This document shows positions 1,536-64,000 of a DNA stretch of 64,000 nt, piece by piece. A program made the translations under genes and the position numbers. The stretch covers positions 15,470 to 79,469 of the forward strand of contig CAJUOM010000002.1 of assembly GCA_910588255.1 (NCBI GenBank). Direction: 5' to 3'. The notes beneath the pieces are model-generated. The model made no database searches. It was not told where the DNA came from and saw nothing but the letters and a program-made list of their open reading frames with translations. Numbering within the stretch: the first letter of the stretch is position 1; the number at the start of each line of letters is the position of its first letter. The DNA is from an uncultured Alphaproteobacteria bacterium (lineage in GTDB: Bacteria > Pseudomonadota > Alphaproteobacteria > RUG11792).

Positions 1536-2147
1536 CTACGGCGGAGAGAACGCTGAAATATCAAGAATAATTGATAAAGTTTTGCATACATTATTCTTAA
1601 ATACTAAACAGTTTTTCACAACAATTCTCAGAAAATATCCATGATATGTAATACGTTTCAGGAAAACCGGAAACCTCCTCATACGAAGTCTATTTTCCAT
1701 TCTCCGCCTTGGAGCATCACATTCCTTCAGAAGTTTGATCATCGCTTCACGCTTTTGCTCCTCACGAATCTCCTTTTTCGAAGGTATATGACGTACGAGT
1801 TTCACATTACAAACATTCATCAAAAGCTTTTCGACATAATGCTTCGAAGGTGATCCAATCTCAGGAATTCTGAGATCTCTTGCAACAATCTCAATACCTC
1901 CATAATCGTCCATATCAGACTCATAACATCTGAAATTTAGACGAGATTCCATCGCGAGGAATAAGGTTTTCCCATGTCTATCATGAAGTTTTATAAGCTG
2001 AGGACGCATAAAATATTCCTCATATTTCTTATGAATTCTAATAAAAATCTCTGGTTTTTTGCGGTCATTAATGTAGCGATTATCAAACCTAATCTGCTGA
2101 AGTTTAATATCCTTATCACCACCCCAGATGGTCATATAAATTCTCAT
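1536..2147 (-). CDS. hypothetical 203-aa protein carried inside the repeat element (no recognisable family)
   Basis: The ATG at 2147 is preceded by AGGAG (2154-2158) with a 6-nt spacer. The ORF is basic and Arg-rich near the C-terminus (PRRRMENRLRMRRF). I see no HUH/Y1, DDE, CxxC zinc-finger, RT or Walker motifs. Composition looks slightly GC-richer than the neighbouring genes. Confidence 0.55.
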   Translation of the reverse strand: MRIYMTIWGGDKDIKLQQIRFDNRYINDRKKPEIFIRIHKKYEEYFMRPQLIKLHDRHGKTLFLAMESRLNFRCYESDMDDYGGIEIVARDLRIPEIGSPSKHYVEKLLMNVCNVKLVRHIPSKKEIREEQKREAMIKLLKECDAPRRRMENRLRMRRFPVFLKRITYHGYFLRIVVKNCLVFKNNVCKTLSIILDISAFSPP

Positions 2148-10961: not shown

Positions 10962-11560
10962 ATTTCTTATGCCGATATTAGTCAGCTAAAAAGCAAAACC
11001 CAAAAATAAAATAATATGGCTGCTGTATTCCTACTCTGACCAGGTTTTTAAGTTATTTCTGCAAATGCAAAATAGCTGACAATATTTATTATATCATGAT
11101 TTTGAATAACTTATATCAAAAATTTTCAACCTCTCTACATTAATAATATATCACAATGTCTTCCGAAAGCGCTATAGGTACCCCTGCGGTGTCATCAACT
11201 ATTTGCCGGTGAGGCCATCTTTCTAATTCACGTTTCGTGCAGTTACTCTTTTTTCTTTAAATCAACATTATTTCGCTCTTTCATTCGAAATACTTTCGTT
11301 GAGGTTAAATAAAATATGTTTTGGAATACTATAGCAGAGTAACAACTTCATCTATAGCTTTCAAAACGGTTTAATATATAACTTTTCTTACGAAAAGTTG
11401 GTTCCTGATTTGTCAAAAAACAATCGAAGATATCTTCTAGATTGATTTTTGCGATTTTTATTATAAAGGAACACTAGTCTTGGATTTCTAAATTGTGTTT
11501 TGTAAATACTATTTTGTTTCCAACAGCGTTTTTTAATAAATCAATCCTGTTTTTTGAGGG

Positions 11561-11608
11561 GCGCCCGTGAGTATGGTAGAATATTGATGGTACCATACTC
11601 ACGGGCGC
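11561..11608. repeat. GC-rich hairpin, type 2 (perfect 18-bp stem GCGCCCGTGAGTATGGTA / TACCATACTCACGGGCGC)
   Basis: Perfect inverted repeat with a 12-nt AT-rich loop. A shorter version is at 29056-29095. Confidence 0.85.
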
Positions 11609-11691
11609 ACTTTGTGACACGTAGCTATATTATTTTCCGAAAGGTAGGCAATATATTAAGTTAGTGAACATTACTACAAGTTCCTAATTTC

Positions 11692-11748
11692 AGGATACAT
11701 ACCTTGATTCGTGTATGTCAAATTCTAAAAAGTCCCATAAAATTTTAG
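11692..11748 (-). promoter_or_regulatory. repeat-borne promoter module (motif + TTGACA-18 nt-TATCCT, minus strand)
   Basis: The -35 (tgtcaa on the plus strand) is at 11716-11721 and the -10 (aggata) at 11692-11697. It points toward smr-dps. Confidence 0.4.
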
Positions 11749-13236: not shown

Positions 13237-14817
13237 TGAAGTAAGTAACCTCTCTCTTTTCAGAATCTTTTCTATATTTTATATAACCATATTTCCCATT
13301 AAAATCGGAACCAGAGATATAAAACGTTTTTCCATCTTCATTCGGATTAATTATTTCGTATCCCAGCAATCGTGTTATAAATTTTGCTATTTCATAATGA
13401 TTCGGTTTGTAAATTTTCTTAAAATTATCTAAAAATTCCCTATCATTACTTTGAACAATAACCGGAATATCTGCACACCTTTCATTGAGATGTCCATGAC
13501 CAAACAGGCCATTCTCTCCTAAAAATTCATTATGATCTGATGCCCAAATTATATAAAATTTCCCGATTTTCTGTTTGTTAAAATATTTAAACAAAGAAGA
13601 TATCACATAGTCATTATACACCATAGCGTTGTCATACTCGTCAATAACAGAATTTCGGATTCGGAGAATTGTCTCCTGTTTAAAAAATCTTTACTAAACA
13701 CTTTTGAATACGGAGTATGGACACATCTTTGATGAAGAACTATGAAATTATGTTTGGAGAAAGTTTGTTGATTTAAAACCGTTATTATATACTGATCCGT
13801 ATATATATCGAAATTTTTATCCCGTGATGCTGTTCTTATTTCATCTATATATTTTTTCCCGGAAATAATACTAATAAGCCCTTCCAATTGATCTGAAATA
13901 TAGAAAGTCTTAAATCCATTTTCTTTTGCTAATTTAAATAAATTAGTCGTATCACTGTATGATAACTGGGTATTGTCAGGTTCTCCTATAACATTCATCA
14001 TAAATTTTAATGAAGATTTAGTATTTATTCCTCCTGCTATACCTTTCGTATAATAAAAATTAGATTCCCTTGATAATTTAAATAAATCAGGGGTAGTATT
14101 CCTTTCATAACCAAACAACGACATATGTCTATAATTTGCACTTTCTCCTAATATATAAACTATGAAGATAGGTTCGTTATTTAAAGAAGTTTTCGCTATA
14201 ACATAGGGTTTATATGATTTTGGATTATAGCCTCTGAATGATAAATCCAGAAAACAAGAGAAGCTTTTTAATGTATTATCAATAGTGAAACGATATTCAT
14301 TTGCCGTGCTATTTCTTATAAAGCAATTGGAATAATATATCCCCCCAAAAGTTGCAAAAAGTATTACTATGCCGAAATGCGACTTGAAGCTTTTGAATTT
14401 CAATATCGGAATCATTAACATAAAAGGGATAATCACAATTAAAACAGTTTTCCAATATTTGAAATACACATTTCTGGCTTCTTGAAAAACATCTTGATAT
14501 TCGTCAAAAAACTGATAGAAGTCATAAGGAGATAATTGACTTCCAAAATATGAAATATGGGCAAACTGTATCATTTGGAGAAAGAAAAGAAAAACTATGC
14601 AAAAAACAGGAAAAAACTTGCTTTTATTAATAATTAGCCCAAAGCATAAGGGAATAAGTAATTTAAATATATTTAACTTATCAGAGCAAACAAAAGAAGA
14701 ATTTACAAATTGATATAAATAATCTGAAAGCATGAATAAACATGCTAATATTAAGGTTGCTGATATTGTGATAATTGTGTTTCTTAAATTAAACTTATTC
14801 CGCATTATTATACTCAA
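13226..14817 (-). pseudogene. phosphoethanolamine transferase (EptA/sulfatase family) paralogue, frameshifted
   Basis: ORFs 13603-14817 and 13226-13624 together align with the intact neighbour. Frame 1 reads FSESEILLLTS. The other frame reads IDEYDNAMVYNDYVISS, against FSGSLTPLIDEYDNAMLYNDHIISS in the intact copy. This implies a 1-nt loss near 13646-13650. Confidence 0.7.
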
Positions 14818-16381
14818 TTCTTCTCTTTTTAGAATCTTTCTTATATTTTATATGACCACATTTACCATTGAAATCCACACCAGAGATAAAAAATGTTTCT
14901 CCGTCTTCATTTGGATTAACTATTTCATATCCCAGCAACCGAGCTATAAATTTTGTTATTTCATAATGATTGGGCTTATAAATTTTCTTAAAATTATTCA
15001 GAAACTCTTTGTCATTGCTTTGAATAATAACAGGAATATCTGCAGTAATAGGGACTAATGTTCCATGCCCATGACCAAACGAACCATTTTCTCCAAGTAA
15101 ATCATTATGATCCGACGCCCAAATTATATAAAATTTTCCGATTTTCTGTTTGTTAAAATAGTTAAACAAAGAAGATATTATATGATCGTTATAAAGCATA
15201 GCATTATCATATTCGTCAATAAGAGGAGTTAAAGACCCCGAAAATTTATGTTTAAATTTAAAATTTTTACTGACAGCTTTTGCATAAGGCGTGTGTATAC
15301 ATCTTTGATGAATCACTATAAAATTACGATTTGTAAATTTCTGACTTTGAATCATTTCAAAAAGTAAGTCATCCATTATTTTTTCTGATTTCTTGACTTC
15401 AGAGTCTTTTGTTCTTAATACATCTATATAAGGTATTCCTGAAATACTACCCAATAAATGCTCTGATTGATTCGATAAATAAAATGTTTTAAATCTATTT
15501 GTTTTTGCAATCCTAAATAAATTTGTCGAGTCACTTGCTGCTTGTATGGGGTTATCCGCCTCTCTTAAAGAATTCAGCATAAACTTACAGGATGCTATAG
15601 TGCAAATAGCACCGGATATTCCTTTGGTGTAATAAACATTTGATTGTTTTACTAAAGTTTTCAATTCAGGTGTTGTTTCTCTTTTATAATTAAACAAAGA
15701 CATATGTTTGCAGTTAGCACTCTCCCCTAATATATAAATTATATTCACAGGTTCTTCGAAGCTACTTTTTATAACTATAATTTCATAAGGTTTATAATCC
15801 TTCACGGGCAATTTTTTATATTCTATAACTAAATATCCCCAAAATGCCTTAAAAGAATTATCTAAAGTAAAACGTACTCCATTTGGATTAAATCTTGGCA
15901 AATGCCTGGTATAATACTTATATCCATAAGAGCAAAATGTAATTAGCAATATCAATGTGCCTATGATTGATTTTCTTTTATTTTTCATAATGCAATACGA
16001 TATTCCTCCAAAAGGAACAATAATCAGCGGAATAATATACCAATAATCATAAAAAGCATTTCCTGCTTCTTGAAATGTGTCTTGGATTTCTCTAAAAAAC
16101 AAATAAACTGAATAAGGAGAAAGAAAATTTCCAAAGTATGCCAAACTAGAAAATTGCATTATTTGAGCCAAACATAAAATAATTATGCAAAAATATGATA
16201 TTAATTTAAATCTGTTAATTACTAACCCAAAACTCAAAGGTACTATCAATGCCAGCACCTTTATGTCATGAGATAATTTAAATTTTTGATTTATAAATGA
16301 AAAAATTATATCAGGAAGTATTAAAAGAAAAGCAACAATAAATATCAATAATATTGTTTTATTCAGGCTATTAAATTTCAT
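14795..16381 (-). CDS. phosphoethanolamine transferase (EptA/sulfatase family), intact
   Basis: 528 aa. A five-TM N-domain is followed by a sulfatase domain with GESANCKHMSLFNYKRETTPEL, HQRCIHTPY, YDNAMLYND and ASDHNDLLGENGSFGHGH. Confidence 0.75.
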   Translation of the reverse strand: MKFNSLNKTILLIFIVAFLLILPDIIFSFINQKFKLSHDIKVLALIVPLSFGLVINRFKLISYFCIIILCLAQIMQFSSLAYFGNFLSPYSVYLFFREIQDTFQEAGNAFYDYWYIIPLIIVPFGGISYCIMKNKRKSIIGTLILLITFCSYGYKYYTRHLPRFNPNGVRFTLDNSFKAFWGYLVIEYKKLPVKDYKPYEIIVIKSSFEEPVNIIYILGESANCKHMSLFNYKRETTPELKTLVKQSNVYYTKGISGAICTIASCKFMLNSLREADNPIQAASDSTNLFRIAKTNRFKTFYLSNQSEHLLGSISGIPYIDVLRTKDSEVKKSEKIMDDLLFEMIQSQKFTNRNFIVIHQRCIHTPYAKAVSKNFKFKHKFSGSLTPLIDEYDNAMLYNDHIISSLFNYFNKQKIGKFYIIWASDHNDLLGENGSFGHGHGTLVPITADIPVIIQSNDKEFLNNFKKIYKPNHYEITKFIARLLGYEIVNPNEDGETFFISGVDFNGKCGHIKYKKDSKKRRIEYNNAE

Positions 16382-28199: not shown

Positions 28200-28973
28200 A
28201 TGGTTAAGAAACGTATACAACATAAGAAAAAACATTCGAGATATTTTGTAAAATATCTTTTATTGCTTCTCATCGTAGGTGGCGGGATTTATTCTTTTTC
28301 TAATTATATATATAGTTTTTTTACTTTTATCCATAGTTCCATACCTCAAACTATGGGTTTTTCAATTGATCATATAAATATTTCTGGAGCGAATAAAAAA
28401 ACTCAAAGATTGATTTTTGAAAACATAGGAATATCAAAAGGAGAGTGTATACTTAAATTATCAACTCAGAAAATTTTTTCTAATATTTCCAAAATCAATT
28501 GGGTAAAATCTGTAGTTGTTCAAAAAATTCTCCCAAATAGTATTAATATAAAAATAAAAGAAAGAACACCAATTGCTATATTTCAAAATGGGTCAGGAGC
28601 AATTCTGATAGATAAAAGTGGAAATCTCATTGAAAAAATAAAAACTAGACTCCCTAATATTCCTATAATCTCTGGAGGAAACGCAAACTTCAACGTGAAA
28701 TATATTTTAGATCTTATTTCTCAATACAAAGATTTGCGAGATAACCTTGATTCATTGACTTATATTCGAGAAAGGCGTTGGAATATCATTCTTTCAGGAA
28801 TAAAAGTCTTGCTTCCTGAAACAGAAATAGAGAAAGCCTTAGAAATTTTATCAACTATACTGAAAACAGGAAAAATAAATAAAAATACAGTCAGTAAAAT
28901 TGACTTAAGAACACCAGAAAATGTTATATTCAGTAAGTTAAAACTAACTAACAGAGGCTCTTTAATTTTATAA
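28200..28973 (+). CDS. ftsQ: cell division protein FtsQ
   Basis: 257 aa. One N-terminal TM segment, a POTRA-like region (I.I.G....T......) and an FtsQ-type C-domain (V.KILPN.I.I.I.ER.PIA). Confidence 0.7.
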   Translation: MVKKRIQHKKKHSRYFVKYLLLLLIVGGGIYSFSNYIYSFFTFIHSSIPQTMGFSIDHINISGANKKTQRLIFENIGISKGECILKLSTQKIFSNISKINWVKSVVVQKILPNSINIKIKERTPIAIFQNGSGAILIDKSGNLIEKIKTRLPNIPIISGGNANFNVKYILDLISQYKDLRDNLDSLTYIRERRWNIILSGIKVLLPETEIEKALEILSTILKTGKINKNTVSKIDLRTPENVIFSKLKLTNRGSLIL

Positions 28974-29055
28974 TTTTTATGTCTACCGAAAGCACTATAG
29001 AATTCCTGTGGCGATGATTTATACATTTTTGAGAATTCAAGCTTTTTGAAGGCAC

Positions 29056-29095
29056 CCGTGAGTATGGTATAATATCAAGCGTACCATACTCACGG
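29056..29095. repeat. GC-rich hairpin, type 2 (14-bp stem CCGTGAGTATGGTA / TACCATACTCACGG)
   Basis: Same stem core as 11561-11608, with a different loop. Confidence 0.8.
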
Positions 29096-29107
29096 ATACC
29101 AAACATT

Positions 29108-29752
29108 TCATTCTAGATCATATGCTAAGGCCCAGCTTATAATATTCCTGTAATCTCGGATAGGATAATAACCTGGCATAAATTCATTAAATCTTTCAGC
29201 CAAAAAATTCATTAGGAAAAATATTTTTTCGATTTTTTTATCATCATAACCTTTTGCTTTTAATGAAGTTTTTATTTTTTCCTGATCTTCAAAAAGTTCA
29301 GATTCATTACCTTGTATCTGATCAACAGGAATAAGTATTTCATTTATTTCTAAAAACTTTTTCAAAAAGAACTTAGATAAAAAATTTATTCTCATCGGAA
29401 TATAATCTGATAAATCCCATTTGCTAGAATCTTCACTATCAGCAAAAGATTTATATTCATCAATTAGATTCCTTAAAGAATGAGAATTTCGTTTTTTGCA
29501 AAATTCAGTAAAACGAGAGTTTTCATCATCTTCTTCATAAGAGAAATGCTTATTATTAAAAGCATCCTTTTCATCTTCAGTCAAAGGAGTGTTTATTTTT
29601 TCCTCTACATCATATTTCAAATCATCAAGATCTGTATTAAAGAAAGTAGGATTCGAAGCTGTATAAAGCAAAATATTTTCAGCTAATGAAGTTTCACATA
29701 TAGTTATACAATTTAACAAAAGCATAACTGGTAATAATTTTAAGATTTTCAT
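29108..29752 (-). CDS. hypothetical secreted protein (214 aa)
   Basis: N-terminal signal peptide (LLLNCITICETSLA), then an acidic Asp/Glu-rich sequence. No recognisable domain. Confidence 0.5.
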   Translation of the reverse strand: MKILKLLPVMLLLNCITICETSLAENILLYTASNPTFFNTDLDDLKYDVEEKINTPLTEDEKDAFNNKHFSYEEDDENSRFTEFCKKRNSHSLRNLIDEYKSFADSEDSSKWDLSDYIPMRINFLSKFFLKKFLEINEILIPVDQIQGNESELFEDQEKIKTSLKAKGYDDKKIEKIFFLMNFLAERFNEFMPGYYPIRDYRNIISWALAYDLE

Positions 29753-45141: not shown

Positions 45142-45198
45142 TTAAAATTTTATGGGACTTTTTAGAGTTTGACTTGTGGAAAGAACGAGGAATATACT
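45142..45198 (+). promoter_or_regulatory. repeat-borne promoter module (motif + TTGACT-18 nt-TATACT) pointing at tRNA-Leu-rpmI-rplT
   Basis: Motif at 45142-45165, -35 at 45169-45174, -10 at 45193-45198. Confidence 0.5.
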
Positions 45199-45216: not shown

Positions 45217-45269
45217 CAGGTGCGCGGCGTGTGGTGAAATTAACGAGTATGCCACACGCCGCGCTCCTG
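45217..45269. repeat. GC-rich hairpin, type 1
   Basis: GCGCGGCGTGTGG / CCACACGCCGCGC, extended by CAGG/CCTG. Confidence 0.8.
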
Positions 45270-61128: not shown

Positions 61129-61484
61129 ATGTCTACCGAAAACGCTATAGGTGCCCCTGCGGTGTCATCAACCGTTTACCGGTGAGGCCATCTTTCTAAT
61201 TCACGCTTCGTGCAGTGACTTATTTTGATAGGTTAATTGTAAAGCCACAACTTCTTCAATATGGTTTAAGATTAACTAACATCCATCCCTAAGGTGGAAG
61301 GGTTTATTGGGTAATTTTTCGTAAGAAAAGTTGGAAATGAGGAGTTAAGGAAGCACGGCGTGTAATAAAATTAACGTGCATACCACACGCCGCGCGCCTG
61401 AATATTCTTTATATTTTCAGTATATTCCCTGTTATTTCCTTATGTCAAATCATAAATAGTCCCATAAAATTTTAGGTGTTTTTA
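61129..61484 (-). repeat. ORF-less copy of the modular repeat
   Basis: A module from 61129, B module (TTAACTAACATCCATCCCTAAGGTGGAAGGGTTTATT), decayed type-1 hairpin at 61353-61398, promoter module and motif at 61452-61475. Confidence 0.8.
61419..61475 (-). promoter_or_regulatory. repeat-borne promoter module (motif + TTGACA-18 nt-TATACT, minus strand) pointing at pheS
   Basis: The -35 (tgtcaa) is at 61443-61448 and the -10 (agtata) at 61419-61424. Confidence 0.5.
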
Positions 61485-63951: not shown

Positions 63952-64000
63952 GGTGCGCGGCGTGTGGTATACTCATTAATTTTACCACACGCCGCGCACC
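63952..64000. repeat. GC-rich hairpin, type 1, perfect 18-bp stem (at the window edge)
   Basis: GGTGCGCGGCGTGTGGTA-13 nt-TACCACACGCCGCGCACC. It has the same loop orientation as 2229-2278, so its promoter module would lie just beyond the window, pointing toward tRNA-Cys-accA. Confidence 0.85.

Follow-up and report, generated by a model that had tools for sequence, protein, structure and literature searches.

The hairpin at positions 11561-11608 of the window analyzed here, a 64,000-nucleotide stretch (C2:15470-79469) of an uncultured alphaproteobacterial draft genome that we call G000, matches a GC-rich palindrome present in about 50 copies in that genome. We lean towards reading it as a copy of an order-specific family of GC-rich DNA palindromes akin to repetitive extragenic palindromic (REP) sequences and the REPIN hairpins built from them, to the Rickettsia palindromic elements (RPEs) and to mitochondrial GC clusters. 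The family as a whole is best read as an orphan, previously undescribed REP- or GC-cluster-like palindrome that has been shaped by recombination. G000 comprises 0.98 Mb in 48 contigs, with 31% GC and an estimated completeness of 99.3%; its closest relatives are metagenome-assembled genomes (MAGs) of uncultured rumen Alphaproteobacteria, and the nearest named homologues of its PriA protein carry the label Holosporales. The order is a single family, from which 41 species genomes in 23 genera were surveyed, and the whole genome of a sister species, G001, was compared with G000. Coordinates without a contig number are those of the window.

In the hairpin at 11561-11608, two 18-nt arms (11561-11578 and 11591-11608; GCGCCCGTGAGTATGGTA) form a perfect stem around the 12-nt loop GAATATTGATGG. 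Its predicted RNA fold reaches -39 kcal/mol on the plus strand and -34.8 kcal/mol on the minus strand, with z-scores of about -9 to -10, and the covariance model of the family matches it at an E-value of 4e-13. The core of this ‘type 2’ hairpin, CCGTGAGTATGGTA, occurs on both strands at 11565/11591 and again at 29056/29082, and a ‘type 1’ core occurs at 2233/2261, 45222/45250, 61353/61381 (with three mismatches) and 63955/63983. For either core pattern, none of 100 shuffles reached the observed count. The preliminary description of this DNA had listed six hairpins and argued that they are unlikely to have arisen by chance; their coordinates and sequences proved accurate, and both the shuffles of the cores and the genome-wide hairpin counts exclude chance.

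The same counts dispose of the possibility that the hairpins are peculiar to the window. Perfect hairpins with a stem of at least 12 bp, at least 50% GC and a loop of 8-20 nt number 32 in G000, compared with 0, 0, 0, 0 and 1 in five dinucleotide shuffles. Allowing up to three mismatches yields about 50 copies, all but two or three of them intergenic, and the 102 matches to the covariance model (R1) over both strands of G000 correspond to these same loci. Chance or artefact is ruled out by the shuffles together with the presence of the same family in independent assemblies. The shared palindrome is 44-45 nt long, and individual elements measure 44-49 nt, with stems of 16-24 bp and loops of 10-17 nt. 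A scan of the window with Rfam 15 returned tRNAs and the signal recognition particle (SRP) RNA only, with no match to any hairpin at the gathering threshold.

Types 1 and 2 had been described as two sequence families, a division that does not survive comparison of all copies. At least eight stem-arm variants are found in G000 (GCGCGGCGTGTGGTA, GCCCGTGAGTATGGTA, GCGCGGCACGTGGTA, GCGCGGCGCATGGTA, GCGCGCCGCGTGATA, GCGCTCGATGTGATA, GTGCGGTACGTGGTA and GCTGCACGTGGTA). Every variant terminates in (T)GGTA, followed by loop L1 (TAATATCAAGGA) or loop L2 (AAATTAACGAGTA), and the sister species contributes the intermediate loops AAATATCAAGGA and AAATATAAGAGTA. What results is a common apex, TGGTA-NAAT...ANNN-TACCA, atop a covarying GC-rich stem, with invariant columns T12, G13, T15, A18, A25, T29 and A33. 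Among 43 aligned L1 copies, 96% of cells pair, a percentage raised by the requirement of at least 12 of 16 pairs in the family scans, and 11 of the 16 pairs have changed on both sides, a count that this requirement does not raise. None of 500 shuffles equaled this covariation, and sliding the partner columns abolishes the signal. Because arms and loops grade into each other with intermediates, they constitute one family. Moreover, type 1 aligns with type 2 as the same module of an inverted cassette. The continuum and the cassette alignment rule out two independent families, and at the level of sequence they establish types 1 and 2 as homologous variants of one palindrome.

The cassette belongs to a modular repeat in which a promoter module (A) is followed by the hairpin, by a long AT-rich imperfect palindrome (D), sometimes by a 203-aa orphan open reading frame (ORF) and a second hairpin, and finally by a module (C) of ~180 nt. 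In module A, an upstream block of 20 nt precedes TTGACA, which a spacer of 17-18 nt separates from TATACT or TATCCT. About 20 hairpins begin 62-77 nt from the start of module A, or ~20-25 nt past the -10 element; another 11 begin 107-247 nt from that start, and five lie ~200 nt before the end of C. The distance between hairpin and -10 element is thus either ~20 nt or 80-250 nt, because the block of hairpin, linker and D sits behind module A in either orientation. Consistent with this arrangement, an alignment of hairpin 1-linker-D with the reverse complement of D-linker-hairpin 2 spans 214 columns, has 77% identity and matches one hairpin to the other, whereas in the same orientation D alone aligns. 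At one orthologous intergenic site, G000 and G001 carry the two different forms of the cassette. The idea that all hairpins occupy the same slot of the repeat therefore stands in part: placement relative to the promoter module is non-random genome-wide, as the cluster at 62-77 nt illustrates, but the distances differ, being 83 nt for the hairpin at 11561 and ~750 nt for that at 29056. The orientation of the loop relative to promoter A is random, with 21 loops in the same direction and 17 in the opposite one.

Comparison with G001, whose orthologous regions are ~90-95% identical to those of G000, indicates how the family evolves. About 9-10 orthologous copies, mostly solo hairpins outside the modular repeat, can be aligned across the hairpin; all are occupied in both species, and thus give no sign of recent movement in the genus. 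At the orthologues of three copies (C1:17740, C10:21665 and C12:7338) the stems are the same and the loop is reverse-complemented, and the copy at C21:5821 has loop L1 in one species and loop L2 in the other. One stem pair of type 1 is G-C in G000 but reads A-T in almost every type 1 copy of G001, and the orthologue of the copy at C32:1994 carries this species-wide pair change. As read from these alignments, the copies have undergone recombination between the arms of a single palindrome and conversion between palindromes, processes by which the stems would stay complementary, and change, without a transposase. The DNA-level account as a whole is well supported, from the unity of the family and the inverted cassette to loop flips, evolution in concert and insertion in the past.

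Other copies lie outside the modular repeat. About 11 solo hairpins lie 9-58 nt past stop codons, several of them between convergent genes; only about three of ten have a T-run (for example C24:13392, which sits between A4 and T4), and the flanks of solo copies contain no evident target-site duplication. One hairpin, at C8:17498-17546 in G000, lies in frame inside priA, where its 16 codons encode GARCDKIDKDITSSAL after the Walker A helix and before the next strand. The PriA of a relative with 81% identity has the same GARCDKIDKDITSSAL insert, both proteins being 667 aa long, and in G001 the hairpin is retained at the orthologous position (C35:7014-7058). By contrast, PriA homologues at 74% identity (651 aa), 66% identity (648 aa) and lower identity are without the 16 residues. 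A similar peptide, likewise encoded by a hairpin, occupies this position in a distant Holosporales PriA (P0023). A second in-gene copy, at C23:5796, was rejected as a clean insertion, as homologues are equally long there.

How might such a family arise and persist? We envisage that it once spread as a selfish insertion, and that it is now maintained and reshuffled by recombination between arms and between copies. This recombination would keep the stems complementary and would turn the hairpins into joints for inversion or deletion of repeat modules. Transcripts that cross a copy would gain a very stable hairpin, at -27 to -41 kcal/mol, that lacks a U-tract and probably acts as an exonuclease barrier or processing site in 5' leaders or at 3' ends. 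A function in stabilizing or processing RNA, or in initiating transcription, is conjectural, and we regard a role of the transcript hairpin as a side effect or later co-option, not as the reason for the family. Several observations weigh against this account. The priA site is a variable loop in which the boundaries of the insert are blurred, and there is neither an empty site nor a target-site duplication among the ~9-10 orthologous copies. The GC-rich stem and invariant apex are kept between genera that share only 37-48% identity in FtsQ, which suggests selection or a recognizing factor that neither the selfish nor the recombining part of the account identifies. Finally, stem mismatches on the transcribed strand in G000 comprise 16 G.U and 5 A.C, hinting at selection at the RNA level.

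Beyond the genus, covariance model R1 finds the hairpin in 11 of the 41 genomes and 5 of the 23 genera of the order, and in none of 100 other Alphaproteobacteria. It is absent from three genera that have promoter motif A, a distribution unlike that of the motif, which marks the hairpin as an entity of its own. The earlier suggestion of a protein-recognized DNA hairpin, as in REP sequences with their REP-associated tyrosine transposases (RAYTs) or in the ends of IS200/IS605 elements, founders on the enzyme. The Y1 domain (PF01797) has no match at E<=1 in G000 and none in G001, and the Y2, Rep_1, phage gpA and CRESS-virus Rep families (PF04986, PF01446, PF05840 and PF02407) are likewise absent from both genomes. 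Origins for rolling-circle replication by HUH Rep, Y2 or phage gpA proteins were rejected for want of a cognate Rep or Y2 protein in either genome. Y1 loci examined in relatives encode IS200/IS605-type tnpA, some beside an ORF of ~357 aa, and the IS200/IS605-type end hairpins (detected at four of six loci) have 9-10-bp stems and 3-4-nt loops, unlike the GC-rich palindrome. With no tnpA in G000 or G001 and unrelated end hairpins in relatives, IS200/IS605 ends or gene-less derivatives of them were dismissed. The six tnpA loci (L239-L244) come from genomes G013, G018, G015, G024, G006 and G053; in G006 there are 82 matches, mostly interrupted by stop codons. A phage origin was set aside, as a viral contig collection held no exact match to either hairpin pattern.

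The 203-aa ORF lies within the repeat itself. At least six copies of this ORF exist, including those at 1536-2147 (minus strand) of the window and at C4:29843-30451 and C7:35713-36321 of G000. Its dN/dS of 0.14-0.29 identifies a real gene under purifying selection. The protein matches no Pfam or PHROG family and has no recognizable fold and no HUH motif, and the homologues found are all close. Its AlphaFold model has a pLDDT of 68, and the best Foldseek matches, at a weak E-value of 0.018, are Hcp/tail-tube-like. One homologue, 69% identical, lies in a repeat copy with modules A and D but without the GC-rich hairpin. Lacking an HUH motif or family, and with a homologue in a hairpin-less copy, it was rejected as the mobilizing enzyme.

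A different candidate comes from G042, a MAG that is 64% complete and for which our results rest on 40 contigs (L199-L238, 204 kb). These contigs contain 50 nearly identical hairpins (GCGCGAGTATGGTA), one per 4 kb. On contig C27 (L225), positions 616-1590 of the plus strand encode a 324-aa protein with the HUH motif NHFHLL, whose best NCBIfam match is ‘REP-associated tyrosine transposase’ (E-value of 4e-16, below the curated cut-off). The gene occurs in G042 only, on a 2.7-kb contig, and its flanks contain no GC-rich hairpin. Direct repeats of the form CTGGTA-N6-CTGGTA lie upstream of it, at ~483-506. A tblastn search of G000 with this protein gave only matches with E>1. Restricted to one MAG and not flanked by hairpins, the gene was discarded as the mobilizer of the family.

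These searches bear on whether the palindrome is a true REP/REPIN element, mobilized as single-stranded DNA by a RAYT-like Y1 HUH transposase whose gene was lost in this genus. We give this explanation a slim chance. In its favor, Y1_Tnp domains occur in 8 of 11 hairpin-positive genomes but in only 9 of 30 hairpin-negative ones, the densest array is that of G042, the genome that encodes the RAYT-like protein, and the loop presumably resembles nick sites of rolling-circle Rep proteins. Set against these points are the lack of a Y1 domain in G000 and G001, the confinement of the RAYT-like gene to a short contig of an incomplete MAG with no flanking palindromes, the different end hairpins of the other Y1 genes and the absence of exact viral matches. 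A portable punctuation element, in which the apex serves as an extended -10 promoter element, is unlikely as well, although somewhat less so. TGGTA(T/A)AAT is nearly invariant and fits the consensus TGnTATAAT, a match of sequence only; the most conserved positions are T12, G13, T15, A16, A18, A19 and T20, plus A25, which corresponds to a T at -7 of the other strand. The opposite junction usually reads TGGTAnnnT (TATCCT or TATACT), and a promoter on that strand would account for the invariant A25. The -10 element would then lie at the stem-loop junction, active in the duplex or pre-exposed when a cruciform is extruded, with TTGACA 20 nt away in sister genera. At 12 of 24 hairpin sides examined in genera g3 and g11, TTGACA indeed precedes the junction hexamer by 19-21 nt, in nearly every case by 20. 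In G042, a TTGAC[AT] box precedes this hexamer by 19-21 nt at 37 of 50 hairpins, 34 of these 37 have TATAAT as the hexamer on the side of the box, asymmetric loops are oriented 21:1 and a co-oriented ORF begins 15-325 nt downstream in 16 cases. Within the hairpin at 11561-11608, a promoter scan flags TTGAGG, 17 nt and TAGAAT with an upstream TG (11554-11582). A 20-nt spacer is poor for sigma-70, however, and the promoters of the lineage itself have 17-18 nt. Hairpins of G000 follow a complete promoter, lie between convergent genes or flip without constraint, about 11 units of G042 are directed into a convergent gene at its 3' end, and the fixed orientation in G042 may reflect only a recent burst of copying among near-identical copies. 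The conserved loop positions T4 and A(-4) could simply pair with each other, and a promoter has no evident need of a GC-rich palindrome. In the G042 copies inspected, the TTGACA box is itself an arm of a second palindrome (CAGTCTGTCAAGGA...TCCTTGACAGACTG), giving TTGACA-N20-TGGTATAAT.

Explanations at the RNA level concern what the hairpin does once transcribed. Predicted RNA folds of the copies range from -26 to -41 kcal/mol and their z-scores from -4.4 to -10, and host selection could have favored a hairpin that protects or marks transcript ends, whether as a stem-loop ~15 nt from the 5' end of promoter A transcripts, as a 3' exonuclease barrier past stop codons or as an RNase III site. Such an element has a modest chance of being the reason for the family. 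The copies just behind promoter A and the solo copies just past stop codons are where it would be expected, its stem is GC-rich in a genome of 31% GC, and the copy at 61353 remains fully paired in RNA through three G.U pairs on the sense strand; the 16:5 ratio of G.U to A.C in G000 likewise speaks for it. That ratio is reversed in G001 (4 G.U to 7 A.C), the two species together give 20:12, which does not reach significance, and many of the events are inherited and not independent; the excess of sense-strand G.U therefore fails as proof, and selection at the RNA level cannot be claimed. Further, the loop flips freely relative to transcription while the apex, which a generic stabilizer would not need, is invariant across genera; one copy lies within the priA coding sequence; and in G042 the unit turns its hairpin side towards the starts of genes about as often as towards their ends. 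Intrinsic (Rho-independent) terminators can hardly be the answer. Solo copies do lie directly past stop codons, some between convergent genes, and two or three have T-runs. Nevertheless, the preliminary description was right that these are not classic terminators: most copies have no U-tract, and at 11561-11608 a scan found 0 terminator-like sites and no T-run after the stem. Intrinsic terminators have short stems, 3-8-nt loops and a U-tract, a pattern from which the 12-13-nt loops (10-17 nt across the family) and the 16-24-bp stems depart, and at other places G000 does have ordinary terminators, which have short loops and T-runs. In addition, about 20 copies follow, at ~20 nt, a strong promoter directed at a gene, which a terminator in this position would silence. 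We return to the orphan palindrome shaped by recombination as the reading that best accommodates the family.

Several known systems resemble this palindrome in part. Correia elements (CREE) are bounded by terminal inverted repeats and BOX-type repeats consist of boxA, boxB and boxC modules; both resemble the present repeat as modular intergenic sequences with promoter elements and RNA hairpins upstream of genes, but the hairpin here is a self-contained palindrome that also occurs alone. REP/REPIN sequences with RAYT transposases (PMC3116915, PMC3337134, PMC5581495) share with our family the form of short GC-rich palindromes, dozens per genome and almost all extragenic. Vertical persistence in a lineage is also common to both, as is a unit that can be read as two inverted arms and a spacer. 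In bacterial interspersed mosaic elements (BIMEs), REP sequences associate with other repeat motifs in mosaics, much as the hairpin does in its repeat. REP sequences have a conserved GTAG-type recognition tetranucleotide at the 5' end, which is not conserved in our arm consensus, nGCGCGGCGTGTGGTA. The present family differs further in its perfect, long stems, its family-specific TGGTA/TACCA apex and the missing RAYT or Y1 gene in G000 and G001, the RAYT-like gene of G042 being unflanked by hairpins.

Palindromic GC clusters of yeast mitochondria, such as GC42 (PMC4478555), provide another parallel. Like our palindrome, GC42 is a GC-rich sequence of ~42-44 nt dispersed in a small, very AT-rich genome, with conserved stems and more variable loops; it merges and shuffles with other modules, and no dedicated transposase has been identified. 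For GC42, a putative duplication of an AG target site and polymorphism for presence or absence are reported (PMC4478555). Neither was found here, where the host is bacterial, the apex is invariant and in-place inversion of the loop is documented. RPEs, of which R. bellii has 526, including 53 within protein genes (PMC1458961), are palindromic repeats of a reduced, AT-rich, intracellular-type alphaproteobacterium with no known transposase. Tolerance of an in-frame insertion in a protein gene, here the 16 codons in priA, is a further likeness. RPEs are ~100-150 bp long and frequent in genes, whereas our palindrome is shorter and has one clear in-gene copy. Finally, small inversions of hairpin loops in chloroplast genomes have been reviewed (PMC12371153). 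There too, a loop between short inverted repeats flips in place among close relatives and leaves the stem intact; the chloroplast hairpins are single-locus features, however, in contrast to a dispersed family that evolves in concert.

The repeat copy that contains the hairpin at 11561-11608 lies on the minus strand. Its promoter module A (11692-11747) consists of the block AAATTTTATGGGACTTTTTA, TTGACA (11721-11716), an 18-nt spacer and TATCCT (11697-11692), and the hairpin starts 83 nt past this -10 element. The leader or linker between them (11609-11691) retains a remnant of D, ...TTTCGGAAAATAATATA..., most of D having been deleted. Module C (11156-11253) ends in CTATAGCGCTTTCGGAAGACAT and is followed by the SRP RNA gene and a Smr-domain gene. 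The small SRP RNA gene (10987-11071, minus strand) lies directly past C, in the same orientation as the promoter of this copy. Elsewhere, module D is found in both orientations as an imperfect AT-rich palindrome with arms of ~65 nt that contains TTGACT; it is seen at full length at L050 2760-2905, and also at C1:53650-53800 of G000, and it is partly or wholly deleted in several copies, including this one.

The second type 2 hairpin (29051-29100), with a perfect core at 29056-29095, is flanked by two convergent genes, ftsQ (stop at 28973) and an ORF of 214 aa (stop at 29108); it lies 13 nt past the stop of the latter and 83 nt past ftsQ. Among type 1 hairpins, the one at 2230-2278 has an L2 loop, begins ~20 nt after the -10 element of the repeat copy with the 203-aa ORF and contains one G.U pair on its sense (minus) strand. 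That at 45219-45267 belongs to an ORF-less copy of the form A-hairpin-C and begins 20-23 nt after TATACT (45193-45198). The hairpin at 61350-61398, 5' of pheS, had been called decayed, which is correct as far as its three mismatches go; all three are G.U pairs on the sense (minus) strand, however, and the RNA still folds fully (-27 kcal/mol). The hairpin at 63952-64000, a perfect 18-bp stem outside repeat copies, lies 80 nt 5' of the tRNA-Cys gene (63872-63799, minus strand). Elsewhere in the window, two adjacent minus-strand ORFs of 404 and 528 aa share DNA that is ~80-85% identical over ~500 nt (13253-13755 and 14822-15331), which looks like the result of a tandem duplication.

In the assemblies of both G000 and G001, many of the repeats that carry a hairpin fall at the ends of contigs. 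When the two genomes are compared (at many loci, among them L010, L011, L017, L032, L045 and L047), the left and right flanks of a repeat often map to different contigs of the other species, mostly at contig ends; the cases within contigs suggest rearrangements at the repeats.

If the reading of the apex as a promoter or punctuation element were true, the same structure would end an upstream transcript and start the next, a supercoiling-sensitive organization in genomes poor in regulators, and an apex that is truly a promoter element would make the family a rare example in nature of a promoter contained in a palindrome able to form a cruciform. More broadly, the family explains the assembly breaks at these sites, and it adds an undescribed member to the few palindromic families known from reduced, AT-rich genomes, namely REP sequences, RPEs and mitochondrial GC clusters. 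Loop inversion, concerted change of the arms, inversion of modules and the priA insert together provide unusually direct evidence for the evolution of a palindrome without a transposase.

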